This document shows positions 8,248 to 59,204 of a stretch of DNA of 64,000 nucleotides, in pieces; the stretch's first letter is position 1; each line of letters opens with the position of its first letter. The translations under genes and the position numbers were made by a program. A model generated the notes under the pieces. It was not told the DNA's origin, made no database searches, and saw only the letters and a list, made by a program, of their open reading frames with translations. This DNA is from Patescibacteria group bacterium. Lineage in GTDB: Bacteria; Patescibacteriota; Patescibacteriia; Magasanikbacterales; JBBTQS01. The stretch is from assembly GCA_038065555.1 (NCBI GenBank), contig JBBTQS010000001.1, forward strand, positions 64,741 to 128,740. The letters are read 5' to 3'.

Positions 8248-8322
8248 TGGTGGGTCGGGAGGGGATTGAACCCTCGACCGTTGGCTTAAAAGGCCACTGC
8301 TCTACCACTGAGCTACCGACCC
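8248..8322 (-). tRNA. tRNA-Lys (anticodon TTT), CCA encoded
   Basis: reverse complement folds as a cloverleaf GGGTCGG..CTTTTAA..GGTTCAATCC..CCGACCCACCA, close to E. coli tRNA-Lys. Confidence 0.9.
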
Positions 8323-8385: not shown

Positions 8386-11004
8386 ATGGCCATTCAACAT
8401 TTTCCTCAGGCGTATTACACCGCAGGTAAGCGGGTTCTGGAAGAACTCCGCACTTCTTTGCATTCTGGAATGACAGCGCGCGAGGCTGTGGAGCGTCAGA
8501 CGCGGTTGGGACCCAATTCTTTGCAGCAGGAACGCGCGCGCATCCGACGCATCCGCATTTTCTTCAGACAATGGAAGAGTCCGTTGTTGTATTTGCTCGC
8601 CATTGCTGGTGCTGTTGCATTTGCACTACACGAATATACAAATGCGATTGTGGTGTTGTTGACTGCGCTCATTAATGCGGCGATCGGGTATGCGCAGGAA
8701 TACAAAGTAGAGAAGTCACTCACCGAACTCTCTGAGTATGTGCCGCTCTACGCACATGTGACGCGCGCGGGCAAAACATTTGAGATTGCAGCAGTCGAAC
8801 TGGTTCCGGGGGACATCTTGCATCTTGCTGAAGGACAGCTGGTTCCTGCTGATGCGCGCATTCTCGTGTGTGATGGGCTCGTTGTTGATGAGCATGTGCT
8901 CACGGGCGAGTCTGAAGCTGTTGGCAAACACACTCGTGTGGTTGCGGCTGAGGCACAAGTAGGAGATCGCAAGAATATGGCGTGGAGCGGAACGTCAGTC
9001 GTGCAAGGGACAGCAACGGCAGTAGTTGTAGCAACAGGTGTCGCGACGCAAATGGGCAGCATTGCGCATTTGTTGGCGAAGACGGACGAACCACTCACAC
9101 CATTGCAACAACAGATCGCAGCGCTTGGTCGTTGGATTGTGATTCTTGTTGGGGTGATGACCGGTTTGATTCTCGTGGTTGGATTGTTACAAGGACGTGT
9201 GTGGAATGAGATTTTTTTGCTCGCAATTGCTGTGGGAGTTGCGGCAATTCCGGAGGGGTTGGTTGTGACACTGACGGTGTTGCTCACTATTGGTATGGAG
9301 CGCATGTTGCGTCAGAGTGCGCTGCCACGACGTCTTATTGCTGCGGAGACATTTGGATCGGTGAGTGTGGTGTGTGCGGACAAAACAGGAACCATCACCG
9401 AAGGGCGCATGCGTGTGGAAGAAGCTCGCACGCGTGCAGAGATCACTGGCAAAGAGTTGGATGAACAGTTGGCGCAGCGTGAGCTGATGCAGGTAATTAC
9501 TATTTTGTGTTCTGAGGCAGTGTGTCTGCCAGGTGCAACCGCTGCTGATCATTCATATCGCGGCGATTCTACAGAGACTGCGCTGTTGCGTCATGCAGTC
9601 GAGTCTGGAATGGATCCGGAGACGATTCTCTCTGGGTTCACACGTATCGCAACGTTGCCATTTGATACGAGCCGCAGGACAATGGCGACTATGCACACCA
9701 CGTCGGACAAGACACAGTTGTTGTGTGTGAAGGGTGCTCCTGAAGTATTGATCCCGCGATCAGATCGCGCGCTGCACGCTGCTGTTGCGCGGCTTGCGGC
9801 TGATGGCTTGCGAGTACTTGCCTGTGCATTTCTCCAGGTGCCTGCAGGAACAGAACTCACAGAATCATTGGTGCGTAGCGCGCGCGTTGTCGGGCTATTT
9901 GGTATTGCTGATCCTGTGCGCGAAGGTGTTGCTGAAGTCATTGCGCGTGCTGAGCACGCAGGTGTTCGGACTGTGATGATCACAGGGGATCATGTTGCAA
10001 CTGCACGTGCTATAGCACAAAAAATTGGATTGCCTACAGGCGATGGAATGGTGTGTACTGGCGCAGAGCTCGATGAGTTCACTGCGAAAGAACGTCACGC
10101 ACTGGTGCAGACGTGTCGCGTGTTCGCACGCGTTGAACCGCGTCACAAGATTCTCATTGTGCAAGAGCTGCAAGAAGCTGGTGAAGTTGTTGCGATGACA
10201 GGTGATGGCGTGAATGACGCGCCAGCGATCAAGGCGGCAGACATTGGTATTGCGCTGGGGTCTGGTGTTCCTGTAGCAAAGGACGTCGCTGATGTTGTAC
10301 TGCTCAATGATTCACTGCAAACCATTATCACTGGTATCGAGCAAGGTCGGTCAATATTCCAGAATATCCGCAAGGTGGTGCTGTATCTCATGAGCAACAT
10401 GTTTACTGCGGTGTTGCTCATTGCGGGGAGTTTGTTCCTTTTCCTTCCGTTGCCGCTGACCGCAGTGCAGATTATTTGGATTAATTTGATGACAGATGTG
10501 TTCCCGGCGATTGCTCTTGCATTTGATCCGAGCGATCCGTCGGTGATGGATCGTCCGCCACGCAAGCGACGCACGCCTATTCTGTCTGTGTCGATGAAGA
10601 CGATGATTTTCCTTGTGAGCATTTTTGCGGATGTGCTGTTGTTGCTGTTCTATGTGAGTATTCAGTCTACGAATTTGTCTGTGCCGTACATGCAGACCAT
10701 GATGTACGCATCGGTCTCACTGTCGAGTGCGTTCTATATTCTCGCAGTGCGACGATTGGAGCAGGCGAAGCCAATGGGATTCTGGCGCAATCGTGTGCTC
10801 ACAGTCGCGATGGTATGTGCGGTTCTTTCGACTGTCGTGTCCATTCATGTTCCATTCTTGCAGCCAATTCTCTCGACGGTTCCGCTTGAAGCGATGGAGT
10901 GGATTGTGGTGCTGATGCTCGCCCTTGTGAAGTACGTGCTCATGCGCGTGGTACAATATGGTTTTCACCTTTATGGCCGTCGACAACTACATTCAACTCA
11001 ATGA
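8386..11004 (+). CDS. P-type cation-transporting ATPase (P2-type, Ca2+/Mg2+-like)
   Basis: DKTGTITEG phosphorylation motif, MTGDGVNDAPA hinge, about 10 TM segments; start at ATG 8386 inferred from the conserved N-terminal spacing (ORF track starts at 8332). Confidence 0.9.
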   Translation: MAIQHFPQAYYTAGKRVLEELRTSLHSGMTAREAVERQTRLGPNSLQQERARIRRIRIFFRQWKSPLLYLLAIAGAVAFALHEYTNAIVVLLTALINAAIGYAQEYKVEKSLTELSEYVPLYAHVTRAGKTFEIAAVELVPGDILHLAEGQLVPADARILVCDGLVVDEHVLTGESEAVGKHTRVVAAEAQVGDRKNMAWSGTSVVQGTATAVVVATGVATQMGSIAHLLAKTDEPLTPLQQQIAALGRWIVILVGVMTGLILVVGLLQGRVWNEIFLLAIAVGVAAIPEGLVVTLTVLLTIGMERMLRQSALPRRLIAAETFGSVSVVCADKTGTITEGRMRVEEARTRAEITGKELDEQLAQRELMQVITILCSEAVCLPGATAADHSYRGDSTETALLRHAVESGMDPETILSGFTRIATLPFDTSRRTMATMHTTSDKTQLLCVKGAPEVLIPRSDRALHAAVARLAADGLRVLACAFLQVPAGTELTESLVRSARVVGLFGIADPVREGVAEVIARAEHAGVRTVMITGDHVATARAIAQKIGLPTGDGMVCTGAELDEFTAKERHALVQTCRVFARVEPRHKILIVQELQEAGEVVAMTGDGVNDAPAIKAADIGIALGSGVPVAKDVADVVLLNDSLQTIITGIEQGRSIFQNIRKVVLYLMSNMFTAVLLIAGSLFLFLPLPLTAVQIIWINLMTDVFPAIALAFDPSDPSVMDRPPRKRRTPILSVSMKTMIFLVSIFADVLLLLFYVSIQSTNLSVPYMQTMMYASVSLSSAFYILAVRRLEQAKPMGFWRNRVLTVAMVCAVLSTVVSIHVPFLQPILSTVPLEAMEWIVVLMLALVKYVLMRVVQYGFHLYGRRQLHSTQ

Positions 11005-11635
11005 TCATGAGAAAATAGTGCTCGTGGTGCGACGCTATCCGCTGACGTACGCTGGCGTACTCATCGGCATAGGGTTGCTTTTGCTCGGGCCGTTCTTCCT
11101 CCTTATTCCACTGCTCAAGCTTGGACTCTTTGGGAAGATTATTATTGGTACGTCGCTTGCGTTCGGCGTGTTCTATGCATCGAGATTGTGGTTCGTGCGC
11201 CAGCGCGATTGTCTCATTATTACGTCGCATCGTGTCATTGATATTCATCAGCAAGGATTCACGCAGCGGACAATCTCGGAGGCGGCGTATGAGCGTATTT
11301 CGGATGTGTCTCATGTGGTGCGAGGTGCGATGCGGATTCTCTTCAATTACGGAACCATTCGCGTGACGTGTGGTGATGGATCAGTTGTACTCACGATGGA
11401 TCAAGTGAAGGATCCCAAGGCAGTGCATCACACGATCAGTGAGATCATGGGTCGCTCGTTGCGCGGCATGATGCCGCGACATGGGGCCGTGGATCTCGAG
11501 CAGGAGTTGGAAAAGATGTCAGAAGTGGAGCTCCAGCGTGTTGCACAACAAATTATTGATCGATTGGGTGCGGTTGGCGCGGCGCGACGTGAGGAACCGG
11601 TGAGCAAGCCGCGCAAGCTGCGTGCACGAGAATAG
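10958..11635 (+). CDS. bacterial PH-domain (bPH_2/DUF304) membrane protein
   Basis: two N-terminal TM helices followed by a YdbT-like PH domain. Confidence 0.5.
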   Translation: MVFTFMAVDNYIQLNDHEKIVLVVRRYPLTYAGVLIGIGLLLLGPFFLLIPLLKLGLFGKIIIGTSLAFGVFYASRLWFVRQRDCLIITSHRVIDIHQQGFTQRTISEAAYERISDVSHVVRGAMRILFNYGTIRVTCGDGSVVLTMDQVKDPKAVHHTISEIMGRSLRGMMPRHGAVDLEQELEKMSEVELQRVAQQIIDRLGAVGAARREEPVSKPRKLRARE

Positions 11636-11638
11636 TCA

Positions 11639-11647
11639 TGGTATACT
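11639..11647 (+). promoter_or_regulatory. extended -10 box TGGTATACT, 6 nt before the ATG of the ftsB-like gene (leaderless)
   Basis: same 9-mer recurs at 17176 and 33358. Confidence 0.4.
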
Positions 11648-11653
11648 AGCCGC

Positions 11654-12043
11654 ATGAAACCTTCTGGACCTTCAACTCGACGACCGACGCAGTCGTTCTT
11701 TCGCTCCAAGATGCTCTTGATTCTGGCGTGCATTGTGCTCGTTTTGCTGGCTATTGCCTTTGGCCGCGCGTATATGCGAGAATATGCGAGCCGACAAGAG
11801 ATTGCACAATTGGAGGCTGAGGCAGCGCGCCTCAAGGGCGAGCAAGTGCAACTCCTCGAACTCTTGTCGTATGTGCAGACCGACGCGTATGTCGAAGAAA
11901 CAGCGCGGGAGAAGTTGCATCTCAAGAAACCAGGCGAGGAAGTTGTGGTATTCAGTGCGCCAACCAGCTCACTCAACTACCAGGTTCCAGAGCACAAACA
12001 TCCAATACAAAAGTGGGTTGAGTATTTCTTCAATCCATCGTAA
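11654..12043 (+). CDS. septum formation initiator (FtsB/DivIC-like)
   Basis: single TM helix followed by a coiled coil (EIAQLEAEAARLKGEQVQLLELL). Confidence 0.55.
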   Translation: MKPSGPSTRRPTQSFFRSKMLLILACIVLVLLAIAFGRAYMREYASRQEIAQLEAEAARLKGEQVQLLELLSYVQTDAYVEETAREKLHLKKPGEEVVVFSAPTSSLNYQVPEHKHPIQKWVEYFFNPS

Positions 12044-13109: not shown

Positions 13110-13183
13110 GCGGGATTAGTACAATGGTAGTATGCTTGCTTCCCAAGCAAGAGACGCGAGTCCGATTCTCGTATCCCGCTCCA
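13110..13183 (+). tRNA. tRNA-Gly (anticodon CCC), CCA encoded
   Basis: GCGGGAT..CTTGCTTCCCAAGCAAG..GAGTCCGATTCTCGT ATCCCGC T CCA. Confidence 0.85.
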
Positions 13184-15675: not shown

Positions 15676-15752
15676 CGCCACTTTAGCTCAGCTGGTAGAG
15701 CAATGCTTTCGTAAAGCAGAGGTCCCGAGTTCGATTCTCGGAAGTGGCTCCA
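15676..15752 (+). tRNA. tRNA-Thr (anticodon CGT), CCA encoded
   Basis: GCCACTT TA GCTCAGCTGGTAGAGC..TTCGTAA..GGTCCCGAGTTCGATTCTCGG AAGTGGC T CCA. Confidence 0.85.
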
Positions 15753-18836: not shown

Positions 18837-18907
18837 TCCGGGATCGTCTAATGGTAGGACATCGCCCTTTGGAGGCGAGTATCTTGGTTCGAATCCAAGT
18901 CCCGGAG
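18837..18907 (+). tRNA. tRNA-Gln (anticodon TTG), CCA not encoded
   Basis: TCCGGGA..TCGCCCTTTGGAGGCGA..GGTTCGAATCCAAG TCCCGGA G; U1:A72 as in bacterial tRNA-Gln. Confidence 0.85.
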
Positions 18908-18947
18908 CACATTCGAGATAAGCTTGAGTCTGAAACACAAAATTTCT

Positions 18948-19493
18948 ATGAAAATAGTTGTTGGATCAGCAAGCAAGCGAAAAATTAGCATTGTTGAGAA
19001 AATTGCTCAGCAAATATTCAAGGACGCTGTAATTGATGTGGTTGGGTACGCTGCAAAGTCTGGCGTGCCAGATACTCCGTATGGTAGGGAGACTTTCGAA
19101 GGTGCAAAGAATAGAGTGCTAGACGCTCAGATCAAAATGTTGGGTGCTGATTGTTATGTAGGCTTGGAAAGCGGCTTGGTAGAACGGTATACACACGTGT
19201 TTGAAGAAGCTTGGTGTGTACTCTTGTTACAAGGTAGAGAGTATTACGGGTATTCGAGTGGTTTGAAGGTTCCGGATTGTATACTTAAGAAAATGGATGA
19301 ACTAGGCAAGCCGCACTCGGAGGTAATGAGATTGATTGAAGAGCAGCACGATAAAACATCAAATGATACGTGGGGTACGTACTCAGGCGGTCTTATTGTT
19401 AGAGAAGTTAGCCTGGGGGAAGCTGTACGCAATGCGTTTATTCAGGGCGTTGAATCCGAGAATTCATTGTTTTGTGAAGTATCTAAAACTTAG
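18948..19493 (+). CDS. inosine/xanthosine triphosphatase (YjjX/Maf-Ham1-like non-canonical NTPase)
   Basis: MKIVVGSASKRKI, SGVPDTPYGRETFEGAKNRVLDA; in the low-GC islet. Confidence 0.55.
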   Translation: MKIVVGSASKRKISIVEKIAQQIFKDAVIDVVGYAAKSGVPDTPYGRETFEGAKNRVLDAQIKMLGADCYVGLESGLVERYTHVFEEAWCVLLLQGREYYGYSSGLKVPDCILKKMDELGKPHSEVMRLIEEQHDKTSNDTWGTYSGGLIVREVSLGEAVRNAFIQGVESENSLFCEVSKT

Positions 19494-19514
19494 AGATGTT
19501 GATAGGGGGTGATT

Positions 19515-19523
19515 TGGTACAAT
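19515..19523 (+). promoter_or_regulatory. extended -10 box TGGTACAAT upstream of the ASCH gene
   Basis: TGnTACAAT about 24 nt before ATG 19547. Confidence 0.3.
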
Positions 19524-19546
19524 CAAATCGTAGACCAAATCGATAT

Positions 19547-19873
19547 ATGAAAACACTAAAATTCAGTGACACTCTCGTCCCTCTCGTTCTCTCAGGAGCA
19601 AAAGACTCAACCTGGAGACTTTTTGACGATAAGGATTTGCGGAAAGGAGATGAACTCTCACTCGTCAACAAAGACACAGGGGAGCAATTCGCAAAGGCGC
19701 ATATTGTTTTTGTGCAAGAAAAGCAGCTCAACAAACTTGATGACACTGATCAAGACGGCCACGAGCTATATGAAAGTGAGGAGAAGATGCTCGAGGATTT
19801 TCGGAAGTATTATGGTGATCGCGTCACACTTGAAAGTATGGTGAAGGTCATCAAATTCAAGCTCGCTGAGTAA
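19547..19873 (+). CDS. ASCH domain protein
   Basis: MKTLKFSDTLVPLVLSGAKDSTWRL ASCH beta-barrel start. Confidence 0.5.
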   Translation: MKTLKFSDTLVPLVLSGAKDSTWRLFDDKDLRKGDELSLVNKDTGEQFAKAHIVFVQEKQLNKLDDTDQDGHELYESEEKMLEDFRKYYGDRVTLESMVKVIKFKLAE

Positions 19874-19879
19874 CAAACT

Positions 19880-20239
19880 ATGAAATCATACACAACCATT
19901 AGTGCCTATCTCAAAGGCGCGCCCAAGTATGCGCAACCCAAGCTCCAAGAAATGAGAGCACTGTGTCAGGAACATGTTCCCGATGCAGAAGAAGTCATCC
20001 GCTACGGCATGCCCACCATCCAACTTCGGGGCAAGAATTTCGTGCACTTCGCCGCAATGAAAGGCCATCTCGGATTCTATCCAACACCTTCGGGCGTCAC
20101 AGCATTCGAAGAGCAACTCAAGAAGCAGGAGATCAGCTACTCGAAGGGGTGTATCCGATTCGCATATGACAAGCCGCTTCCCGTGGCGTTTATCAAAAAG
20201 ATTATTATCTTCAGGTTAAAGGAAGAACGGAGCCGCTAG
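19880..20239 (+). CDS. DUF1801/YdhG-family protein
   Basis: YdhG-like block RYGMPTIQLRGKNFVHFAAMKGHLGFYP. Confidence 0.55.
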   Translation: MKSYTTISAYLKGAPKYAQPKLQEMRALCQEHVPDAEEVIRYGMPTIQLRGKNFVHFAAMKGHLGFYPTPSGVTAFEEQLKKQEISYSKGCIRFAYDKPLPVAFIKKIIIFRLKEERSR

Positions 20240-20323
20240 TATAGACGTTTTTACAAAGAGTTTATGAACCACACCTTCTGGCTCGCAAGGAAAGATAGCG
20301 TTGAGTATTGAAAGGTAAAACGA

Positions 20324-20362
20324 AGACCCACACCGATCGTACGAAGGGTGTGGGTCTTTGTT
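20324..20362. terminator. bidirectional rho-independent terminator
   Basis: agacccacacc / ggtgtgggtct stem flanked by a T-run. Confidence 0.6.
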
Positions 20363-20374
20363 GTGTTGATGCCG

Positions 20375-21670
20375 TTACGCGTTCTTCTTGGCTCGAGAGG
20401 TCTCCTTGTGCCCATCGACAAGTTTCTGGAACTCGTCGATGGGGAAGTGGATACCGTGGCGACCGCAGAATTCTGAGAGGAGATCTTCTGGGATCCCCAG
20501 CTCAGATTTCAAGGTGAAGGCATGGGTGGCGCTGATCTCCTGTGCCGCAGCGATCTTGTCGAGGTGTTTCTTGCTGCGTTGCAGCACACGCACGAAGCTG
20601 TCGCGTTCCGATTGGATCCAGCCGTTGACAGCTGATTCGTGACGGAGCGTGAGTTCGCGATTGTCGATTGCGACGCAGAGCGAATGCACCCAGCCTGTGA
20701 GAGCCGTGAGCTCGACTCCGTGGAGTTGTGCTCCGATCATCGTTCGTCTGAGAGCTCTGCGAAGCAGATACCCCTCCCGAACGTTGCTTGGAACCACCCC
20801 TTCCCGGATCATCAGGATTGCCGTCTTCAGATGATCGAGGATGATTCGGCTCCACCTCGTGTCACCAACGCTCTCCTGGATGAGTCGGAAGGAGGTGGAG
20901 TACTGATCGATTTCGTGGATCGACGCGCGATCCTGCAGGATCATCGAGAATCGTTCCATCCCCGCGCCCGTGTCTACGCACTTCATGGGGAGATTGGTGA
21001 TAGCACCGTTCTCGTCCTTGAAGTATTGCATGAAGACGCCAGCGTTCCAGATCTCGATGTGTCGACCGGGAACGAGCACATCATCCGTTTCTTTCTCGGC
21101 GAAGGATTCGCCTCGATCGAAGAAGACTTCGGTGCACGGACCGCACGGACCGCTCGTTCCGGCGGGTCCCCAGAAGTTGTCCTCCGGAGGGCGGCCGATG
21201 ATGTGGTCGCGAGGGAGGAAGCGTTCCCAGATGCGTGCGGACTCTTCGTCGCTGGGCACACCAGGGAGGCTGTCGTCGGCATTGAACACGGTCGCGTACA
21301 AGCGATCCGCAGGAATGCCGAACTCTCCAGTGATGAGCTCGAATGCGAGTTCGATCGCTCGCTCCTTGAAGTAGTCACCGAATGACCACGAACCCATCAT
21401 TCGGAAACTCGTACCATGGTAGGAGTCTCCGACACTCTCGAAGTCCACGAAGCGGATGCAATCCTGGACGTTGGTGAGGCGTGGGTAGGGTGGTGTGGCC
21501 TGCCCTGTGAAGTAGGGCTTCATAGGGGCCATGCCGGAGTTGATGAACATCAGGGTAGGATCGTCCTTCGGCATGATGCCAGAGGGCGATATATACCGGT
21601 GTTCGCGATTAAGGAAATGCTCCAGGAAGGTCTGGCGCACCTCCTCGGCCGTTTTGTATGGTAATTTCAA
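20375..21670 (-). CDS. alaS: alanine--tRNA ligase N-terminal fragment (aminoacylation and tRNA-recognition domains only; no editing or C-Ala domain)
   Basis: AlaRS signatures TAEEVRQTFLEHF, DPTLMFINSGM, SFRMMGSWSFGDYFK, FWGPAGTSGPCGPCTEVFFD, EIWNAGVFMQYF, VDTGAGMERF, GVVPSNVREGYLLRRALRR; start chosen at TTG 21670 with a GAGGAGG RBS (ORF track extends to 21736). Confidence 0.8.
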   Translation of the reverse strand: MKLPYKTAEEVRQTFLEHFLNREHRYISPSGIMPKDDPTLMFINSGMAPMKPYFTGQATPPYPRLTNVQDCIRFVDFESVGDSYHGTSFRMMGSWSFGDYFKERAIELAFELITGEFGIPADRLYATVFNADDSLPGVPSDEESARIWERFLPRDHIIGRPPEDNFWGPAGTSGPCGPCTEVFFDRGESFAEKETDDVLVPGRHIEIWNAGVFMQYFKDENGAITNLPMKCVDTGAGMERFSMILQDRASIHEIDQYSTSFRLIQESVGDTRWSRIILDHLKTAILMIREGVVPSNVREGYLLRRALRRTMIGAQLHGVELTALTGWVHSLCVAIDNRELTLRHESAVNGWIQSERDSFVRVLQRSKKHLDKIAAAQEISATHAFTLKSELGIPEDLLSEFCGRHGIHFPIDEFQKLVDGHKETSRAKKNA

Positions 21671-21743
21671 AGAAGCCTCCTCTTTGAGGGGTTGAAGAGC
21701 GTGAGGAACGATATAGTATTTTTTGTTTTTTGGCAAGAGGTTG

Positions 21744-21772
21744 TTGACGTTGTTACTCTTCTGCGCTAGATT
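21744..21772 (+). promoter_or_regulatory. sigma70-like promoter TTGACG-17-TAGATT for the AKR-rSAM-alaS2 operon
   Basis: -35/-10 pair with 17 nt spacer in the AT-rich divergent intergenic region; AGGAGG RBS before ATG 21816. Confidence 0.4.
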
Positions 21773-21815
21773 TTATTGGGTTCGTTCGTTAAAAATACAA
21801 GATTTAGGAGGGGGT

Positions 21816-22556
21816 ATGGAATGGTTTGAAAGGCTCTACTTTGGCACGTGGCAGCTGGGTGGGGGTCAGTTTAGAGCGTTGTCGGAGTATCAGAAGGAGA
21901 GACTCCTGAGTGCTGCAATCATTGCGGGTATCTGTCGCTTTGACACCGCTGCTGTGTATGGAGGAGGGGCCGTGGAGGAACTCCTTGGTCGCCATCTGCA
22001 ACAGCAAGCGGTGATTGTGACTAAGATTCCTGCAATTAGAAAGCCAAATCCGGAAAAGCAGGAGCCCATTAACGAGTTCTACCCGACCGATCACATGCGT
22101 CGGTGTGTCATGAATTCGTTGGATCGACTGAGGAGGGCGCAAGTAGACACCATCTTGTTGCATAATTGGTCGCCATCATGGGCGGTCGGTGCACAAGATG
22201 TGTTGGATTGCCTGAACAGCATGAAGCAGGAAGGCCTCACACGGAGAATTGGCATTTCGTTGCCCAATGACTTTGGATTCCAATCGGGCGCGCGCCTCTT
22301 TCCGTGGATGGATGTGGTAGAGATGCCATATAACCCGGAACAGGCATGGGCACGAAAGCTACTTCCTGCGATGCAAGGATGTGGTGTAGAAGTCTTGCTG
22401 AGAAGTCTGTTTGGGCAAGGGCGCTTTCTTACGACTGACACCGCTGAATCGTTGATCGCGAATGCAGGTGAACTTGGAACGTCTGTGGTCATCGGTATGA
22501 CCACAGAGGAGCAGATCAAACGAAACATCAACTGTCTCAAAAGAGGTGCGCAATGA
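21816..22556 (+). CDS. aldo/keto reductase
   Basis: AKR N-terminus (LYFGTWQLGGG...FDTAAVYGGG); stop overlaps the rSAM start (ATGA). Confidence 0.7.
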   Translation: MEWFERLYFGTWQLGGGQFRALSEYQKERLLSAAIIAGICRFDTAAVYGGGAVEELLGRHLQQQAVIVTKIPAIRKPNPEKQEPINEFYPTDHMRRCVMNSLDRLRRAQVDTILLHNWSPSWAVGAQDVLDCLNSMKQEGLTRRIGISLPNDFGFQSGARLFPWMDVVEMPYNPEQAWARKLLPAMQGCGVEVLLRSLFGQGRFLTTDTAESLIANAGELGTSVVIGMTTEEQIKRNINCLKRGAQ

Positions 22557-23764
22557 ACTATTTCGACGCTGCAAACACAGAAACATTCGTCACTGTGCCT
22601 GGAATGACGACTGGTCGAGAATTCGCACTGCGGGAATACTCGTATGGAGTGCTGGTACCTGACAAGAACCATCCGCTCTCCTGTGTGAGTGTTTCGAACA
22701 GCTCGCTCAGTATAGATCTCTGGGTCGGTTGTGCGTGGCAGTGTCGCTATTGCCATGTGCAGGGTACGAACCAAGACCTGGCTGAGCAAGGAACAATGCC
22801 TCGTAGACCCCGTCTACGCACTGCATTCACGATCGGGCAGATCGTCGATGCGTTGGTGGAGCATCCGTTCTTCGTGGCGGATGTCTCTGTCATCAGTATC
22901 GGAACCGCCAGTACTGAACCGTTCGCACCGGCGATTGTAGACAGTACATTCGACATCATGAACGAGTTCGTGCGACGTGGACTGCGCAATCCATTCTGGA
23001 TCGTGACCAAAGGCGGGATTCCGAAGGGGAGAAAGGTGGATTTCGCCCGCATCGTAAGTGCATCACGCGGACTCATGATCTCACTCTGTTGGGCTGGTAA
23101 CCCAAAGGAGATCGAGCCGATGCGCAATAACCGCTTCCTCAACGTTGAGGAAGCAAAGGAGGCTGGTGCGACAATCGCCTGGTACCTCCGGCCAATCGTG
23201 CCGGAGTGGTCTGGGAGTTCGGAACACATTGACATGATGATGCTGTGGGTCAAACAACACTACAGCGGCATCATTGATATGATCGTTCCGGGCGGACTTC
23301 GGTGGACTGAGGGTATCGAGAATGGCCTGGTGGAGATTCACAAACTCGCCATGCCAGACATTTCTCGTGGAGATAACGAGAAATCACTGCCTCAGGAGCT
23401 GGTGGATTCCATCTTCGCACTGAGTGGTCAGTACTTCCCGGGCGTCCCCGTGTACCTCAAGTCTTCCTGTGCGCTCACACATATGCTCAAGATTCCGAGC
23501 ATTACATCAGTGCACGCGTTCGCGAGAGCTGAGTGTGAAGCATCGCGATGTCCAGCCGAACAGCGCAGGATCTGCGCAAAGGGTGCTGCCTACGATATGA
23601 CGGTTGAGAAAGCTCAGGACATTCTCCGTCGTCTCGGTGTACCTGCTCGTGTGCTGGGGTGGGATGGTACGGGTGGTCTCATCACATCCCCGGCACTGAG
23701 CGAGTTCGCGTACGCTATCAGGCAGACGATCTTCAAAAGCTTGGCTGAAGGAGGTGCCGCATGA
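22553..23764 (+). CDS. radical SAM protein (SPL/COG1533-like)
   Basis: CxxxCxxC cluster GCAWQCRYCHV at residues 60-67; 4-nt ATGA overlaps at both ends. Confidence 0.7.
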   Translation: MNYFDAANTETFVTVPGMTTGREFALREYSYGVLVPDKNHPLSCVSVSNSSLSIDLWVGCAWQCRYCHVQGTNQDLAEQGTMPRRPRLRTAFTIGQIVDALVEHPFFVADVSVISIGTASTEPFAPAIVDSTFDIMNEFVRRGLRNPFWIVTKGGIPKGRKVDFARIVSASRGLMISLCWAGNPKEIEPMRNNRFLNVEEAKEAGATIAWYLRPIVPEWSGSSEHIDMMMLWVKQHYSGIIDMIVPGGLRWTEGIENGLVEIHKLAMPDISRGDNEKSLPQELVDSIFALSGQYFPGVPVYLKSSCALTHMLKIPSITSVHAFARAECEASRCPAEQRRICAKGAAYDMTVEKAQDILRRLGVPARVLGWDGTGGLITSPALSEFAYAIRQTIFKSLAEGGAA

Positions 23765-24885
23765 TCAACCGTGAGCAGATCAAGCGCTTTTTCGAACATC
23801 ACGGCTTCGTGTGGCGAGAAGGTGCTTCGATCACGAGCAGCAACTATAAATTGCTGTTCAACATTTCGGGCGGTGTGGTGTATGAGAGGATTATCTCGGG
23901 CAGAGAACGACCCGAAGTATCCAGAGTTGCATCCGTGCAAACCTGTCTAAGAACAGATGGGTGGAATCGGATCGGTCATTCTGGAAAGCATCACCTCGCC
24001 TTTGAAATGCTCGGTCATTTCTCTTTCTACGAAGGCAATGAAGCCGATGTGAAAGAGAGGATGATCGGAAGTGCGTGGCGATATCTGACAGAATGTCTAG
24101 GTATCAACCAAGACACACTGTTCGCAACAGTGCATCCGCAAGACAGTACGTCGCAACGGATTTGGAGTAATTTGGGGGTAGAGACAAGTGAAAACGCTTG
24201 TAATACCACCTATACTCCATGCAAAAACCGATGTGGTGTGCGAACAGAAATCGTCTGGCGAAATCCAACTACAGGGAACATCGTGGAGCTCTGGAACTTG
24301 GTTTTCACTGAGTTCCAGGGTCAAACGCTCTTCGAATTTCCCTTGGACAGGATAGCTGCCGACTCTGGCGCGAGTATCGATCGGCTCGTTACTGCCGTTG
24401 AAGGTAAGTCGAGCGATTACGATAACTCAAATTGGGTCGACATCATCGGCTCTATCGAGGCGCAGTCGAATGCTCCGGACCGGATATTGGTGTGTCGACT
24501 GGCAGATATGGGTAAGGCGTCGGTACTTCTCGTGGAGCAAGGCCTTCGGCCGGGGAACAAGGCTGCGGAGTATGTGCTTCGGAGGATCATCCGAGAAGCA
24601 TATCTTCTTTGCAAGCAGGTACAGATTCCCTTCGAGGTATTTGTCAAACTTGCGAGCAGTCGCTGGTGTCCAACCCCAGCAATGTCAGAGGTTTTTGTGC
24701 AGGAAGCAACTAGATTCGATTCTGCACTGCGGCGCGGCATGGCAGAATACCGAAAAACAGTTCTCCGTGCACAAGGACCTTTGTCTCACGAAACCATCAA
24801 GCAACTCTCGGCAACGTTTGGGCTTCCGGAAGCACTCATTGTAGTGGAGGAGTCCAAGCGTGCTATACGAGGTGACCATGAGTAG
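23761..24885 (+). CDS. divergent AlaRS catalytic-domain paralog (374 aa)
   Basis: collinear with AlaRS motifs but drifted: EQIKRFFEHHGF, KHHLAFEMLGHFSFYEG, PCKNRCGVRTEIVW, ELWNLVFTEFQ, EYVLRRIIREA. Confidence 0.65.
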   Translation: MINREQIKRFFEHHGFVWREGASITSSNYKLLFNISGGVVYERIISGRERPEVSRVASVQTCLRTDGWNRIGHSGKHHLAFEMLGHFSFYEGNEADVKERMIGSAWRYLTECLGINQDTLFATVHPQDSTSQRIWSNLGVETSENACNTTYTPCKNRCGVRTEIVWRNPTTGNIVELWNLVFTEFQGQTLFEFPLDRIAADSGASIDRLVTAVEGKSSDYDNSNWVDIIGSIEAQSNAPDRILVCRLADMGKASVLLVEQGLRPGNKAAEYVLRRIIREAYLLCKQVQIPFEVFVKLASSRWCPTPAMSEVFVQEATRFDSALRRGMAEYRKTVLRAQGPLSHETIKQLSATFGLPEALIVVEESKRAIRGDHE

Positions 24886-25633
24886 TATTGCTCATGAAAT
24901 AACCCGTGTTTTGCAGCCCCTCGCAGGCTTGAACGCGGTGTTGCATGTTGGCCTGGATCGGAACGTATCACATGGTAGGGTTGATCTCTTAGCAGGTTGT
25001 GTTGACGGCGATATCAAACGGTACGCAATCGATATAATTTGTCTGCTAAAGAGCTGGGACCCATCCGGAGAGTTTTCTGTCTGCGATGACAGTGTACGGT
25101 TTGATACATCGGCTGGGACAGGTGGGGTCGCGGTGTGCGATCCAATTGCCCTTGTTGAAGGTATCAGCGGCTGGATCGAAGGAAGAATGCTCAGTGGGCA
25201 AAGACGTTCGTGGGCCGTCGGGTATTGGTTACCTGAAGCATTGTGCGGGGACCTGGCTACAGCCAGTGTGCTTCATGATGCTACGGGTATAGCAGATCGG
25301 GTTTGTCAACTCGTATCACCATATCCAGAGAAGCTCTCGAATAGTATTGTTCAGTGGTGTTCTGAAGAGATCAGGTTGAAGTTAGTAACACTTCGTTCAC
25401 TGTCACAAGCAGTAGCGTTGGTGGAACACCGGCTTTGCCTGGCGGACATTGCTGCGGCACTCGTGAGGTTGGCATTCGCTCGGGGACGACGCTACCTGCG
25501 TGGATTTCGGTCTCTCGAACAACAAGTTGTGTTCCTGTCACCAGCCGATCGGGCAGTCTATGATCTGGCATCTGAGCTCTTGCTCGGATCGACGGCAGAA
25601 TCGACGATTGAACGGGTCAGGAGCGTGATTTAG
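24860..25633 (+). CDS. hypothetical protein (last gene of the operon)
   Basis: overlaps the preceding gene by 26 nt; no clear family. Confidence 0.4.
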   Translation: MLYEVTMSSIAHEITRVLQPLAGLNAVLHVGLDRNVSHGRVDLLAGCVDGDIKRYAIDIICLLKSWDPSGEFSVCDDSVRFDTSAGTGGVAVCDPIALVEGISGWIEGRMLSGQRRSWAVGYWLPEALCGDLATASVLHDATGIADRVCQLVSPYPEKLSNSIVQWCSEEIRLKLVTLRSLSQAVALVEHRLCLADIAAALVRLAFARGRRYLRGFRSLEQQVVFLSPADRAVYDLASELLLGSTAESTIERVRSVI

Positions 25634-25663: not shown

Positions 25664-26269
25664 TTATTTTAGGAGTGTTTTTCCGTTCGCATCAATAATG
25701 ATCGCTTCTGAATTTCGTATACGATCAATAACCACATTGTGTTTTAGTTCAAATGCGCGAGCAGCGTCCTCAAGTGCGGGGGTGTAATGTGGAAGCGGTG
25801 TGTTTGGGATGATACAAAGCCCTGTAAAGTCAGTAAGGTTCATCTCGATGGGGTCTGAGAGTATTTCACCGGCAACTGCAATCGATGGTCCGAGGATGAT
25901 ACTTCCAGCACTTACACCTATATACATTCCACCACGATCTAGAAGTGATACGATCGATGTGCGGAAATTTGATGACCGTGCAAAAGCGAGTAGTCGGTAG
26001 GTATTTCCACCGCTTACATAAATAACATCGTAGTTTGTGAGGTCTGCTACTGGTTCGGATGCAAGATCGACAAAATCAACAGTACAAAATTTGAGCGATT
26101 GAAATTGTGACTTTGCTCGCTCAGAGTATTTACCATGGTCTGGCCCTTCTGCAGTTGTTATGATTGCAACAGAGGGGGTTTGATGGTTGGAAAACGTGTG
26201 TTGAACCGCAAAAAAAGTATGACCCTGCGTCAGTCCTGTCGAAGTGAGTATGATCTTTCCGTGGTTCAT
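25664..26269 (-). CDS. peptidase S51 (dipeptidase E/cyanophycinase-like)
   Basis: VIYVSGGNTYRLL and IGVSAGSII serine-nucleophile block. Confidence 0.6.
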   Translation of the reverse strand: MNHGKIILTSTGLTQGHTFFAVQHTFSNHQTPSVAIITTAEGPDHGKYSERAKSQFQSLKFCTVDFVDLASEPVADLTNYDVIYVSGGNTYRLLAFARSSNFRTSIVSLLDRGGMYIGVSAGSIILGPSIAVAGEILSDPIEMNLTDFTGLCIIPNTPLPHYTPALEDAARAFELKHNVVIDRIRNSEAIIIDANGKTLLK

Positions 26270-50536: not shown

Positions 50537-51940
50537 ATGCAACTTGTATTTATTGGATCTGGATTTGTTGGGACGACCACGGCTGCGGCCATGGCGTCAT
50601 TTGGCCACGACGTACTGCTGTACGACATTAACGAAGCGCGCGTAGCGAGCCTCTCGTCGCGTAATCGCAAGACGATTGATGCGTGCTTGTTCGAGAACGG
50701 ACTGGCTGATTTGTTGATTGAGCACTCAGATCGCATCACGTTCACCACTGACTACACACTCGTTGAGCAGACGCTCGAATCTGCCGAGGCTGTCTTCATC
50801 TGTGTGCCGACGCCGTCGCGCGAGGATGGGAGCACAGAGATGTCGTATTACCAGTCTGCCCTCAAGAAATTGGCTGGCGCACTTGCAAGTCGCAATAGTG
50901 GCAAGCAAAAGAATCGCGTGGTGATTATCAACAAGAGTACGGTTCCAGTAGATACTGCAAAGTATACTCAAGAACAACTCGACAAGGCGGGTGCGAAGAA
51001 CGTCGGCGTTGTGGCAAATCCTGAATTTCTTGTTGAAGGTCGTGCGATTGAGGGCAACTTGCAGCCAACGCGTATTGTTGTTGGTGCAACTTCACCCAAG
51101 GATTTTGCGATCATGCGTCGCATGTATGCGCATTTCGAGGGCAACAACGATATCCCGTATATTGAAGTGAATCCATTTGAGGCTGCGGCAGGCAAATTGC
51201 TTGCGAACTATTTGTTGTTCTCTCGTCTCATGCTCTGCTATGACGTGATGGGACGCGTGAGTGAGCAATTCAATGATGTGACGTTTGAGGCAGTACGCAA
51301 GATCGTGTGTTCTGATCCGCGCATTGGATTCTGGGGATTCTACGACAGTATTTATGCAGGTGGGTCGTGTCTGGAGAAGGATGCGAAGTCCCTTGCGCAT
51401 CAGCTCGAAGTAACAAAAGCAAATACAGATCTGGTTCGCGCAAGTATTGGGAGCAATCGTCGCCAGATTGAGCTCTTCCTCGCTCGTGTGAAGAAGGCGA
51501 TGCCACAAGGCGCAAAGGGCGCGAGCGTGGCAGTGCTCGGCCTTGCGTTCAAGCGCGACACGAATGATATTCGCAATTCTGCTGGCCCGATGGTAGTAGA
51601 TTGCATGCGTCGCCATGGCGCTGCAGAGGTTCGTGTATACGATCCTGGGGTGGATATGGTCTCACTTGAGGCGTATGCGAAAGAGACGAGCACCAAGCGC
51701 ACACGCGTCATCGCATGCCGCACTGCAGCAGACGCAGTTCGTGGCACGAGTACAAGTGTCATCACAACCGATTGGCCAGAGTTCCAAAAGCTGGCCTCAG
51801 TATTTGTGAAGGCTGCGCGTGCGCCGTATCTCATTGCTGATGGTCGCCGCATGATTGCAGCAGATTACCAAGCGCTCACGAAAAAAGGATTTACGGTGTT
51901 GGCTGTAGGATCCCCATTGTATCGTCCAACCAAAAAATAA
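50537..51940 (+). CDS. ugd: UDP-glucose 6-dehydrogenase
   Basis: N-terminal Rossmann IGSGFVGTTTAAAMA, catalytic-Cys region GGSCLEKD. Confidence 0.85.
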   Translation: MQLVFIGSGFVGTTTAAAMASFGHDVLLYDINEARVASLSSRNRKTIDACLFENGLADLLIEHSDRITFTTDYTLVEQTLESAEAVFICVPTPSREDGSTEMSYYQSALKKLAGALASRNSGKQKNRVVIINKSTVPVDTAKYTQEQLDKAGAKNVGVVANPEFLVEGRAIEGNLQPTRIVVGATSPKDFAIMRRMYAHFEGNNDIPYIEVNPFEAAAGKLLANYLLFSRLMLCYDVMGRVSEQFNDVTFEAVRKIVCSDPRIGFWGFYDSIYAGGSCLEKDAKSLAHQLEVTKANTDLVRASIGSNRRQIELFLARVKKAMPQGAKGASVAVLGLAFKRDTNDIRNSAGPMVVDCMRRHGAAEVRVYDPGVDMVSLEAYAKETSTKRTRVIACRTAADAVRGTSTSVITTDWPEFQKLASVFVKAARAPYLIADGRRMIAADYQALTKKGFTVLAVGSPLYRPTKK

Positions 51941-51941
51941 T

Positions 51942-52847
51942 ATGGCAGTATATCTTGTAACAGGTGGCGCAGGGTTCATTGGATCGCATCTCACAGAGGC
52001 GCTCATTGATGCGGGGCATACAGTGCGTATCATCGATAATTTTTTGACGAGTACGCGCGAGACTGTACATCCTCGTGCAGAGTTATTTGAGGTAGACGTA
52101 CGTGATCTCGCAGCGATTCGTCCGGCATTTGCTGGTGTGGATGGCGTGTTCCATATGGCTGCGCTTCCTCGTGTGCAGGAGTCGCTGGAGAATCCGATCG
52201 AGGCTCATGAGTACAATCTCAATGCGACGCTCAATGTCTTTGTGGCTGCAAAGGACGCGGGAGTCAAGCGCATCGTCTATTCTGCGAGCTGTGCAGTGTA
52301 TGGCGAAGATGCGCCGAAGCCTTCTCCGGAAGACGTGTTGCCTGCGCCAATGAGTCCATACGGAGTGCAGAAGTATGTCGGTGAGCTGTACGCACGAGTT
52401 TTTTCGCTTGCGTACCAGATTGAGACGGTGAGTCTGCGCTATTTCAATGTGTACGGGCCGCGTATGTCTGAGGTGGGCTCGTATGCGTCTGTGATGTCAG
52501 TGTTTGTGCGCCAGAAGCGTGCTGGCACGCCGCTCACCATTACAGGAGATGGCACACAGACTCGGGATTTCACATACGTGACCGATGTTGTGCGCGCCAA
52601 TATGTTGGCAATGACGAGTGACAAGGTGGGCAAAGGCGAGGTAATGAACGCCGCAGCAGGCCGCAACATTAGTATGAACGAGCTCGCCGAACTCTTCGGT
52701 GGTCCTGCTGAGCATATTCCTGCGCGCCTTGAGCCGCATGATGCATGGGCTGATAACACGCGTGCGATGGAACTCCTCGGATGGAAGGCGGAAGTCTCCG
52801 TTGAAGAGGGAATTGCCCGCGTCAAATCATTCTACGGAATTTCGTAA
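51942..52847 (+). CDS. NAD-dependent sugar-nucleotide epimerase (UDP-glucuronate/UDP-glucose 4-epimerase-like)
   Basis: VTGGAGFIGSHL and SDR YxxxK region (YGVQKYVGE). Confidence 0.75.
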   Translation: MAVYLVTGGAGFIGSHLTEALIDAGHTVRIIDNFLTSTRETVHPRAELFEVDVRDLAAIRPAFAGVDGVFHMAALPRVQESLENPIEAHEYNLNATLNVFVAAKDAGVKRIVYSASCAVYGEDAPKPSPEDVLPAPMSPYGVQKYVGELYARVFSLAYQIETVSLRYFNVYGPRMSEVGSYASVMSVFVRQKRAGTPLTITGDGTQTRDFTYVTDVVRANMLAMTSDKVGKGEVMNAAAGRNISMNELAELFGGPAEHIPARLEPHDAWADNTRAMELLGWKAEVSVEEGIARVKSFYGIS

Positions 52848-52857
52848 TTTCCCCCGT

Positions 52858-53574
52858 ATGGTACTTACTGCACGACTTGTTGCGAAGCTATCAGCACTTG
52901 GTGTCGTCATTGCGCTCATTGTTGGTGGATTCTTTGTGTATCGCAGTGATTGGAATCAAGGACGGGTATTCATGGAATTCGTTGCATCGCGTACAGCTGT
53001 AGATCGTGCTGGTATCGAACAGCTCATGACTACAGCACGTGAGTGGGAGCAAAAGGCAAATGCAGCAGTTGATTCCTCTGCACTTGTCGAAGCCGCACGG
53101 CATTGGAAGACCATGGGAGACGCGTATGCACTCGAGTATCCACGACAAAAGGCGATTGCGTTGTACGAGGAGGCTATTAATCGGTTTGGGGATAATCCAA
53201 CGATTTATGCAGCAATTGGTGACACGTACAAGGCACTCGCGAAGTACGAAGAAGCAGAGGAGAATTACCAGCGCGCAATCACGATTGAGCCGGGTCAGTA
53301 CACACACTACCAAAAGCTCGCAACGCTGTACCGATATCGAATGCAAGCAGCGCCTGACAAGGTGCTTGCGGTGTATGCTACAGCGCTTGAGCGTCTCATT
53401 ATTGGTTCACCTGAGATTTACAAGGAGCGCGCCAACTATTTTGAGGAGTTGGGGAGCTACAAAGCAGCTGCAGCAGATTGGCAAGCAGTAGTACAACTTG
53501 ATCCGACAAATACTGGTGCAAAATCTGAATACGACAGACTCACTGTGTTGGCTGCACAGCAGTCAGCCAAGTAG
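52858..53574 (+). CDS. TPR-repeat membrane-anchored protein
   Basis: N-terminal TM helix and three or four TPR units. Confidence 0.5.
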   Translation: MVLTARLVAKLSALGVVIALIVGGFFVYRSDWNQGRVFMEFVASRTAVDRAGIEQLMTTAREWEQKANAAVDSSALVEAARHWKTMGDAYALEYPRQKAIALYEEAINRFGDNPTIYAAIGDTYKALAKYEEAEENYQRAITIEPGQYTHYQKLATLYRYRMQAAPDKVLAVYATALERLIIGSPEIYKERANYFEELGSYKAAAADWQAVVQLDPTNTGAKSEYDRLTVLAAQQSAK

Positions 53575-53585
53575 CGTACGATGCG

Positions 53586-54971: not shown

Positions 54972-55028
54972 AGGGGTGGGACAGGGTTGTAGGTATACGG
55001 TATACTACCTACTGTATCTTTGCAGCCT

Positions 55029-57131: not shown

Positions 57132-57162
57132 TTTCACGTATACTAGGTGTAACTTATCTCCT

Positions 57163-58176: not shown

Positions 58177-58180
58177 TACT

Positions 58181-58855: not shown

Positions 58856-58856
58856 T

Positions 58857-59204
58857 ATGACTGTGGGATTAGTTCAAATACTTTTTACAATCATTGCGGT
58901 ACTCGCATTAGTGCGTATTGTGCGTCGGGGGACTGCGCGACATCTGTCGTTGCCGCTCACTGTCGTTGCTGCTGTGGTCTGGGTGTGCGTGTTAGTATTC
59001 ACCTGGGCGCCAACACTCTTGGATCGTGTGGCAGAAGTGGTAGGTGTGGGGCGTGGTGTTGATACTGCAGTTTATTTTTCGATACTGTTGTTGCTGTATC
59101 TTGTATTTCGCGTTTTTGTGCGCCTGGAGCACATGGAAGATCAGTTGACGCGGCTCACTCGCGAAGACGCCATTCACCAGTATCATGCCAAGAAAAAAGA
59201 ATAG
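58857..59204 (+). CDS. DUF2304 small membrane protein
   Basis: three TM helices; usual GT2 neighbour. Confidence 0.5.
   Translation: MTVGLVQILFTIIAVLALVRIVRRGTARHLSLPLTVVAAVVWVCVLVFTWAPTLLDRVAEVVGVGRGVDTAVYFSILLLLYLVFRVFVRLEHMEDQLTRLTREDAIHQYHAKKKE

Follow-up and report, generated by a model that had tools for sequence, protein, structure and literature searches.

A naturally truncated, editing-less alanyl-tRNA synthetase paralog in a probable accessory gene cassette of Patescibacteria

Among the aminoacyl-tRNA synthetases (aaRS), alanyl-tRNA synthetase (AlaRS) is regarded as the most conserved in architecture and as hardly able to do without its editing function; to our knowledge, no cellular AlaRS lacks an editing domain. 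In Nanoarchaeum equitans the enzyme is split (alpha and beta), the catalytic part being a separate polypeptide of similar extent to the protein described here. Other aaRS paralogs are known to act on different substrates: GluQRS on queuosine, and EpmA/EpmB, a pairing of a LysRS paralog with a radical-SAM aminomutase, on EF-P. The ascamycin cluster of Streptomyces sp. carries an extra AlaRS (AcmD), a truncated Ala-tRNA-dependent transferase (AcmF) and a hydrolase (AcmE), together with radical-SAM genes, and its AlaRS both supplies Ala-tRNA-Ala and gives self-resistance (PMC12945691, PMC4257720). A mini-AlaRS of Tupanvirus (TuAlaRS) charges tRNA-Ala and supports growth with no more than an aminoacylation and a tRNA-recognition domain (PMC10036535).

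The window, i.e. the whole 64-kb stretch of DNA analysed, contains an AlaRS-derived gene, here called L1, at 20375–21670. It lies on the minus strand, a point absent from the preliminary description of this DNA, and begins with a TTG at 21670, preceded at 5 nt by an AGGAGG Shine-Dalgarno sequence, and stops with a TAA at 20375–20377. The product has 431 residues, the 432 first reported being the number of codons with the stop included, and the public gene call is the identical protein (P0001, MEK7647483.1). L1 matches Pfam PF01411 over positions 1–433 of 552 (E 2e-101) and NCBIfam TIGR00344 (alaS) over positions 1–431 of 847, scoring 347 bits where the cutoff is 457; against NF002436 it reaches 314 of the 529 bits needed. 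Both of these equivalog cutoffs for the housekeeping alanine--tRNA ligase are thus missed. The closest solved structure is the N-terminal fragment of Aquifex aeolicus AlaRS (PDB 1riq; L1 residues 7–426 against 4–426), which, like 3hxu, aligns with L1 from end to end. The C-terminus corresponds to about residue 440 of E. coli AlaRS, where the crystallised 441-residue fragment ends. No PF07973 editing domain was found in L1 by the Pfam search, and a tblastn comparison of the 64-kb window with two small-AlaRS proteins, each with such a domain, found no editing-domain similarity. The first reading of the protein as one with all three of the AlaRS motifs it cited, truncated domain content, an end near that of the minimal catalytic fragment and no editing domain therefore stands. 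This is the architecture of a natural mini-AlaRS, with aminoacylation and tRNA-recognition domains only.

Every residue of the alanine pocket and the ATP site that was checked is kept in L1. M43, R69, W170, N212, V214, D235, G237 and the motif-3 arginine are conserved in all nine L1 representatives compared. The helical tRNA-recognition domain is present, and N303, which contacts the acceptor stem, is conserved. Position 400, an aspartate in AlaRS, is a serine in the L1 of the window; it varies across L1 proteins, and equally so in the small-AlaRS of the CPR (the ultra-small Patescibacteria). The identity of L1 to genuine AlaRS cores (37–43%) is within normal AlaRS divergence, and the monophyly of L1 is weak (9% bootstrap).

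An intrinsic-terminator-like hairpin on the minus strand (20319–20362) lies 3' of L1, its outer pairs beginning 12 nt after the stop codon, as had been noted from the sequence. It has a 12-bp G+C-rich stem followed by the U-rich tail CGUUUUACCUUU, with a dG of -27.4 kcal/mol (z = -5.8 relative to shuffled sequences), and was missed by a consensus scan solely because its loop is long. Lying between convergent genes, it may terminate transcription of the plus-strand DUF1801 gene as well. The boundary in base composition reported for this region is also present, the GC content dropping from 0.54 to 0.44 downstream of L1.

On the other side, a divergent intergenic region of 145 bp (21671–21815), with a Shine-Dalgarno sequence on either side and promoter-like hexamers on both strands at 21708–21772, separates L1 from a plus-strand operon. 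Its first gene (21816–22556) codes for an aldo/keto reductase (AKR) of 246 aa (PF00248, E 8e-29), which is conserved in three other loci (L183, L005 and L004), the divergent L1/AKR layout recurring in L183. The start of the next gene, U403 (22553–23764, plus strand), overlaps the AKR stop (ATGA). U403 has a CxxxCxxC motif, the cysteines of which do not vary in alignment A2 and which recurs in every full-length homolog checked; a weak PF04055 match is seen in 19 of 24 family members. Its AF2 model (pLDDT 93) has PFL-AE, NifB, QueE and LipA as best Foldseek matches (10–15% identity), and all matches with E ≤ 0.001 are radical-SAM enzymes. Judged by the cluster motif and the partial TIM-barrel fold of the model, U403 belongs to the radical SAM superfamily, in an uncharacterised subfamily; it is 51% identical to the Saccharibacteria copy. 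Fusions tie two other proteins of the cassette to it. The AKR and the radical-SAM protein are joined in P0370, P0371, P0374 and P0378, while U257 (24860–25633, plus strand) is fused to the C-terminus of the radical-SAM protein in P0361 and P0364, both of which have a G-x10-DxD motif. U257 is conserved in the same three loci as the AKR and probably starts at the ATG at 24878, which gives about 251 aa. It belongs to no recognised family (no match in Pfam, NCBIfam or the PDB sequences), its AF2 model is poor (pLDDT 51), and it is possibly nucleotidyltransferase-like. Convergent with the operon is a gene for a peptidase of family S51 (PepE/cyanophycinase; 25664–26269, minus strand; PF03575, E 2e-26, with a weak NCBIfam PepE match), which adjoins the cassette in L183, L004 and L009 as well. 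No cassette protein matched the PADLOC defence models, and Rfam gave neither a T-box nor another leader close to the cassette.

The operon includes a second AlaRS-derived paralog, L2 (23761–24885, plus strand; 374 aa), the start of which overlaps the stop of U403; L1 and L2 flank the AKR and the radical-SAM gene. The preliminary description had mentioned neither this paralog, 2 kb from L1, nor the cassette, and both change the picture. L2 matches PF01411 over positions 8–401 of 552 (E 1e-42), is 25% identical to L1, and belongs to a family of about 370–390 aa that forms a separate clade (92–100% bootstrap). The L2 of the window (type A) retains R69, E209, N212, V214, D235, G237, the motif-3 arginine and N303, while M43 is replaced by G and W170 by T, and the GPCGPC motif is absent; in the type-C L2 (L009), E209 and N212 are changed. 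This pattern indicates that the catalytic chemistry is kept in L2 and that the amino-acid pocket is remodelled. NCBI (PGAP) names both L1 and L2 “alanine--tRNA ligase-related protein”.

The two paralogs lie less than 10 kb apart in all eight independent genomes examined (the window, L004, L005/6, L007/8, L009, L183, L184 and L185), their homolog sets have 11 putative contigs in common, and they have overlapping reading frames in cassettes of type B. The six-gene cassette of the window (L1, AKR, radical-SAM enzyme, L2, U257 and S51 peptidase) occurs in unchanged order in a Paceibacterota contig and rearranged in Saccharibacteria. Elsewhere in the CPR, the L1/L2 pair is found with different accessory enzymes, which, depending on the cassette type, include an aminotransferase, a 2OG oxygenase, methyltransferases, an AdoMet decarboxylase and S51 or S66 peptidases; the radical-SAM enzyme is the best conserved of the accessory genes. 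The window and CP064996.1 have only the cassette genes in common, their flanks and GC content (53% vs 43%) being different. In ten L1-bearing loci, no gene for an editing or C-Ala part was found near L1, out to ±10 kb. A scan of viral contigs gave canonical-type alaS only (34–37% identity), so that L1 is not obviously phage-borne. Scans of reference genomes with the L1 alignment and of metagenomes with P0001 gave canonical alaS and no true L1 loci among the at least 600 matches listed for each.

As one of two AlaRS-derived genes at the core of a CPR cassette, L1 most likely codes for a specialised helper enzyme rather than for the cell's main alanine-charging enzyme. We favour, with a probability of about 60%, the explanation that L1 is an AlaRS paralog, truncated by nature but intact, which belongs to an accessory cassette and has no housekeeping role, and that the cassette works by a mechanism like that of AcmD/AcmF/AcmE. 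L1 would activate alanine and either charge tRNA-Ala or form Ala-AMP, giving the cassette its own supply of activated alanine, possibly one resistant to the cassette product. Editing may be dispensable for such an enzyme because its Ala-tRNA would not be primarily for translation. The altered pocket of L2 would accept another substrate, presumably the product of the AKR, the radical-SAM enzyme and U257; L2 would either adenylate this substrate or be the transferase that aminoacylates it. The S51 peptidase could then remove the aminoacyl cap, as a step of activation or of immunity.

As for the housekeeping enzyme, the annotated alanine--tRNA ligase in the CPR examples checked is a small-AlaRS of ~580–635 aa with an editing domain, as in CPR3 and other Patescibacteria. 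In Southlakia, which has no L1/L2 pair, the small-AlaRS is the sole PF01411 protein, and it is essential by Tn-seq (bioRxiv 10.1101/2023.05.29.542759). No editing-competent AlaRS was found in the 64-kb window or in the 8 kb past its right edge (~72 kb of the 881-kb genome), and comparison of the window with small-AlaRS loci showed no synteny; the small-AlaRS matches examined belong to other genomes, according to their NCBI accession ranges. Three long reading frames of the window were considered as AlaRS candidates and rejected: one of 890 aa (as full-length AlaRS) is a P-type ATPase, and those of 581 and 593 aa (as small-AlaRS) are a DUF4153 and a VTT/PAP2/LssY protein. A separate small-AlaRS with an editing domain is presumably encoded elsewhere in this genome.

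The short length of L1 would, taken alone, suggest that the gene is what remains of a full-length alaS (a pseudogene), or that a frameshift or an error of assembly has shortened it. However, there are at least 115 full-length homologs in CPR bacteria (415–445 aa, 40–76% identity) that end at the same place, which excludes a frameshift or assembly artefact, as had been argued from the terminator, and the identical 431-aa protein occurs on seven contigs from independent assemblies. With the terminator directly 3' of the stop, the next gene on the opposite strand and no remnant of an editing domain in the window, such an origin is ruled out, its residual probability being negligible. There is more to be said for a function in translation, in which L1, by itself or in a heterodimer with L2, would be the housekeeping AlaRS, without cis-editing and with proofreading either absent or provided by AlaX or DTD. 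L1 could still serve translation, since it has diverged no further than real AlaRS cores and has weak support for monophyly; its active site is fully conserved, N303 included, its extent is that of catalytic fragments known to be active, and a viral mini-AlaRS is able to replace yeast AlaRS. No other AlaRS is present in the ~72 kb, but this is just 8% of the genome. In CP064996.1, L1 is intact despite the fragmentation of neighbouring genes, but the fragmentation also hits other genes of the locus and may be long-read error. In addition, a housekeeping aaRS would not normally be tied, as L1 is, to a paralog such as L2 and to variable enzymes in differing neighbourhoods. The score of L1 falls short of the alaS equivalog cutoff, a small-AlaRS is the annotated ligase of CPR3 and other Patescibacteria, and Southlakia depends on its own without the pair. 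This function in translation is therefore quite unlikely. It is very unlikely that L1 and L2 form a two-subunit enzyme, free of editing and C-Ala domains, as the only alanyl-tRNA synthetase of the organism; a cellular AlaRS would then consist of two catalytic-domain paralogs and break the rule that editing is always kept. Of the two possibilities left by the preliminary description, a split or editing-less housekeeping AlaRS thus finds no support, there being no editing or C-Ala partner near L1 in any of the ten loci. The other, a specialised catalytic paralog, agrees with the nearby L2, the linkage of the pair within accessory-enzyme cassettes, the NCBI naming, and the use by the CPR otherwise of an editing-domain AlaRS of ~590–635 aa.

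A further alternative concerns the target of the cassette. An aaRS paralog and a radical-SAM enzyme might together put an unusual aminoacyl group on a macromolecule, either a tRNA nucleoside or a protein, a pairing for which EpmA/EpmB are a precedent. The acceptor-stem recognition domain and N303 are kept in both L1 and L2, and the prominence of the radical-SAM enzyme among the accessory genes also points this way. Nevertheless, this explanation is unlikely, as no target gene is linked and the accessory enzyme sets differ between cassette types; such variation is more like small-molecule tailoring with immunity than a fixed modification pathway.

What is new here is that editing-less AlaRS cores form a natural and widespread family in cellular organisms, paired with a remodelled paralog within variable sets of enzymes; new, too, is a radical-SAM subfamily (U403) with the AKR and U257 as fusion-supported partners. 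If the preferred explanation of an AcmD/AcmF-like cassette is true, aaRS-derived aminoacyl transfer extends from one antibiotic pathway in Streptomyces to the CPR. These bacteria are generally regarded as nearly devoid of secondary metabolism and as living on other microbes, so that a product of the cassette might play a part in their interaction with hosts. The L1/L2 paralogs will be miscounted wherever genome annotation or completeness estimates use AlaRS as a single-copy marker.

Among described systems, the closest precedent for the L1/L2 cassette appears to be AcmD/AcmF/AcmE, where two AlaRS-derived proteins and a hydrolase occur in one cluster, as do L1, L2 and the S51 peptidase. This comparison is with published descriptions, the AlaRS fold being the common ground. 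AcmF (370 aa) consists of aminoacylation and tRNA-recognition domains only and is close in size to L2 (374 aa), which likewise has an AlaRS-type protein and a hydrolase alongside, and L1 is predicted to be a catalytically intact AlaRS within its cluster, as AcmD is. In contrast to L1, with its 431 aa, AcmD is full-length (871 aa). The transferase analogy is imperfect, as N212 and D235 are kept in L2, while AcmF has lost activation residues (N219Q, D232E); L1 keeps all of them. The accessory enzymes are also unlike, the window having no sulfatase/sulfotransferase set, and the host here is a CPR bacterium. TuAlaRS is a natural AlaRS with the same two domains only as L1, but it is viral, akin to the AlaRS of its amoebal host, has no second paralog or cassette, and lacks the canonical residues that contact G3:U70, while L1 keeps N303. 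The small-AlaRS of CPR bacteria and spirochaetes (NF002436 type, ~580–635 aa) has a 4-residue deletion in the motif-2 loop in common with L1 and L2, and one from Saccharibacteria also has the EIWNAGVFMQY insertion of L1. They are 35–39% identical to L1 and keep the PF07973 editing domain, before which L1 ends. The constant partner of L1 is another catalytic-domain paralog, L2, which sets the pair apart from the split AlaRS of N. equitans. The N461 and 441-residue fragments of E. coli AlaRS and the N453 fragment of the A. aeolicus enzyme have the domain content and end point of L1, but these are laboratory truncations, whereas L1 represents a natural, conserved gene family.

The alaS-like gene L1 (20375–21670, minus strand) opens with a TTG codon at 21670, 5 nt downstream of an AGGAGG Shine-Dalgarno sequence read in the DNA, and closes with TAA at 20375–20377. 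Its product of 431 aa is identical to that of the public gene call (P0001, MEK7647483.1). The preliminary description of an alaS-like gene without an editing domain is confirmed by its domain content: the protein covers profile positions 1–433 of 552 in Pfam PF01411 (E 2e-101) and 1–431 of 847 in the NCBIfam alaS model TIGR00344 (347 bits, under the 457-bit cutoff). The best solved structure, the N-terminal fragment of A. aeolicus AlaRS (1riq), aligns end to end, and the C-terminus falls at about residue 440 of E. coli AlaRS, the end point of the crystallised catalytic fragment of 441 residues. No editing-domain similarity was found across the whole 64-kb window. The identical protein occurs on seven independently assembled contigs and all 115 homologs (40–76% identity) are 415–445 aa long, so the truncation is a conserved family trait, and an artefact or pseudogene is refuted.

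The strong terminator described after the gene is also present, as a hairpin at 20319–20362 with a 12-bp G+C-rich stem (dG −27.4 kcal/mol, z −5.8) followed by a U-rich tract. The GC content is lower downstream of L1. A lower-GC stretch (0.44 vs 0.53) at 18924–20239 on the plus strand, with genes for an NTPase (DUF84), an ASCH-domain protein and a DUF1801 protein, stops at the same hairpin, so the terminator may act in both directions. The window carries four tRNA genes, for Lys-UUU (8248–8322), Gly-CCC (13110–13183), Thr-CGU (15677–15752) and Gln-UUG (18837–18908), and none for tRNA-Ala. A cell-envelope polysaccharide locus lies at 50537–60390 (UDP-glucose dehydrogenase, epimerases, sugar transferase and glycosyltransferases) and includes a 703-aa subtilase with FG-GAP repeats (55020–57131).

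A second AlaRS-like gene, L2 (23761–24885, plus strand), lies 2 kb from L1 on the opposite strand and was overlooked in the first reading of the window. Its 374-aa product matches PF01411 (E 1e-42) and is 25% identical to L1. It belongs to a plus-strand operon, divergent from L1 and with overlapping stop and start codons, that runs from an aldo/keto reductase (AKR, 21816–22556) through the radical-SAM protein U403 (22553–23764) and L2 to U257 (24860 or 24878–25633); an S51 peptidase gene (25664–26269) follows in convergent orientation. All six genes recur in identical order on a 341-kb Paceibacterota contig, and in rearranged form in Saccharibacteria, with identities of 49% (L1), 51% (U403), 34% (L2), 33% (AKR) and 26% (U257). 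In the closed 943-kb genome CP064996.1 (525194–542486) L1 is intact while AKR, U403, U257, L2 and S51 are each split into fragments, as are several unrelated neighbours, which could reflect real decay or long-read frameshift errors. The cassette genes are the only ones common to this genome and the window; the flanks are unlike and the GC content differs (43% vs 53%), so the cassette is a discrete and probably mobile unit.

U403 belongs to the radical-SAM enzymes, outside every characterised subfamily. The cysteines of CxxxCxYC are conserved, PF04055 matches weakly in 19 of 24 family members, and the confident AlphaFold (AF2) model (pLDDT 93) has as nearest solved folds the radical-SAM enzymes PFL-AE, NifB, QueE and LipA, at just 10–15% identity. 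Searched at E ≤ 1e-3, 1.84 billion proteins yield 243 representatives, a small family. Natural fusions join an N-terminal AKR to U403 (P0370, P0371, P0374, P0378) or U403 to a C-terminal U257 (P0361, P0364), which argues that the three proteins act together. No family is detectable for U257. A G-x10-DxD...DD pattern in its fused homologs suggests a nucleotidyltransferase fold, a mere lead since the structure model is poor (pLDDT 51).

The finding thus exceeds one gene: across the CPR, a conserved pair of AlaRS-derived enzymes is the constant core of cassettes whose accessory genes vary in three sets, the window's cassette including a new radical-SAM subfamily. L1 and L2 lie less than 10 kb apart in all eight independent genomes examined, and their match lists have 11 contig-length fingerprints in common. 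Type A (the window, L183, L005/L006 and L004, the CP064996.1 locus) has AKR, U403, U257 and the S51 peptidase, the last not seen in L005/L006. Type B (L007/L008 from CPR3, 137–7767 in L007; L184, 5314–11278; L185, 7431–15463) recurs in other CPR in L2-L1 order, and the two reading frames overlap in L007/L008 and L185. It carries SAM-dependent methyltransferases, AdoMet decarboxylase, an S66 (LD-carboxypeptidase/MccF family) peptidase, an AsnA-like AsnRS catalytic core without anticodon-binding domain and, in L184 and L185, an AstE/AspA-type deacylase. In type C, seen in L009 (8001–15030 of that locus) from a Saccharibacteria-like contig of 469 kb, the genes between L1 and L2 encode a class-IV aminotransferase, an S51 peptidase, a WelO5-like protein (2OG oxygenase or halogenase), a GFO/IDH/MocA oxidoreductase and a YqcI/YcgG protein.

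Both proteins were aligned to E. coli AlaRS (mature-protein numbering). All nine L1 representatives compared keep M43, R69, W170, N212, V214, D235 and G237, together with Asn303, an acceptor-stem residue, and the arginine of motif-3 GxGxER; D400 is variable, equally so in the editing-competent small-AlaRS of CPR. L1 is 37–43% identical to genuine AlaRS cores, which share 42–46% among themselves. With these residues and this normal divergence, L1 would seem still able to activate alanine and bind the acceptor stem. Type A L2 retains R69, F90, E209, N212, V214, D235, G237, the motif-3 arginine and N303, but M43 is replaced by Gly and W170 by Thr, Phe, Ser or His (M43G and W170T in the window), and the GPCGPC segment is lost. 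This pattern points to retained adenylation chemistry with a remodelled amino-acid pocket; the type B and type C versions of L2 are more idiosyncratic. A 4-residue motif-2 loop deletion common to L1, L2 and small-AlaRS, and an EIWN-AG-VFMQY insertion common to L1 and one Saccharibacteria small-AlaRS, indicate that both arose within the AlaRS lineage of CPR type. A distance tree places L2 in a separate clade on a long branch (92–100% bootstrap); monophyly of L1 is weak (9%).

The intact active site and normal divergence of L1 would suit a housekeeping AlaRS, in mini or two-piece form. This is unlikely, as L1 is linked to the cassette, the pair is patchy, and CPR have small-AlaRS. The latter, known from CPR and DPANN, has catalytic, tRNA-latch and editing domains and no C-Ala (bioRxiv 10.1101/2023.05.29.542759). 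Our searches recovered such proteins with PF07973 at 561–635 aa, annotated as alanine--tRNA ligase in CPR3, Patescibacteria, Parcubacteria, Saccharibacteria and spirochaetes. Small-AlaRS genes of ∼590 aa, editing domain included and C-Ala absent, lie in a Saccharibacteria and a Woesearchaeota genome (L013, 9998–11767; L014, ∼9995–11760), and the annotated ligases of spirochaetes such as Rectinema, Entomospira and Marispirochaeta have a near-identical architecture. The cultivated Saccharibacterium Southlakia epibionticum lacks the L1/L2 pair; its sole PF01411 protein is a 635-aa small-AlaRS, essential by Tn-seq (ES in 3/3 essentiality calls of the table). The pair is therefore accessory and patchy in distribution, and an editing-competent AlaRS is present in the lineage, though none was found in the window or the 8 kb past its right edge. 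Of the alternatives in the preliminary description, the specialised catalytic paralog is the supported one. Modification of a macromolecule, as known for GluQRS or EpmA/EpmB, would agree with a radical-SAM partner and with tRNA-recognition domains that have been kept, but is unlikely given the variable tailoring and peptidase genes.

For the specialised L1/L2 cassette, ascamycin biosynthesis is the nearest parallel among characterised systems. There AcmD, an extra AlaRS of 871 aa, makes Ala-tRNA-Ala and is product-resistant; AcmF (370 aa), AlaRS-like with only aminoacylation and tRNA-recognition domains, moves alanine from Ala-tRNA to a sulfamate nucleoside; and the hydrolase AcmE takes the alanine off (PMC12945691, PMC4257720). 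From this analogy we infer every functional step. L1 would supply the cassette with activated alanine of its own (Ala-tRNA-Ala or Ala-AMP), which would make editing unnecessary, and may be insensitive to the cassette product. L2 would bind a cassette-specific substrate made by U403 together with AKR and U257, and adenylate or aminoacylate it. The aminoacyl cap would be removed by the S51 peptidase or, in type B, by the S66 or AstE-type enzymes. The parallel does not hold in full: unlike AcmD, L1 is truncated, and L2 retains N212 and D235, both missing from AcmF. In type B, the pairing of an MccF-like peptidase with aminopropyl-type chemistry is reminiscent of the aminoacyl-nucleotide logic of microcin C. 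The L1/L2 system is thus not without precedent, AcmD/AcmF being a recent one.
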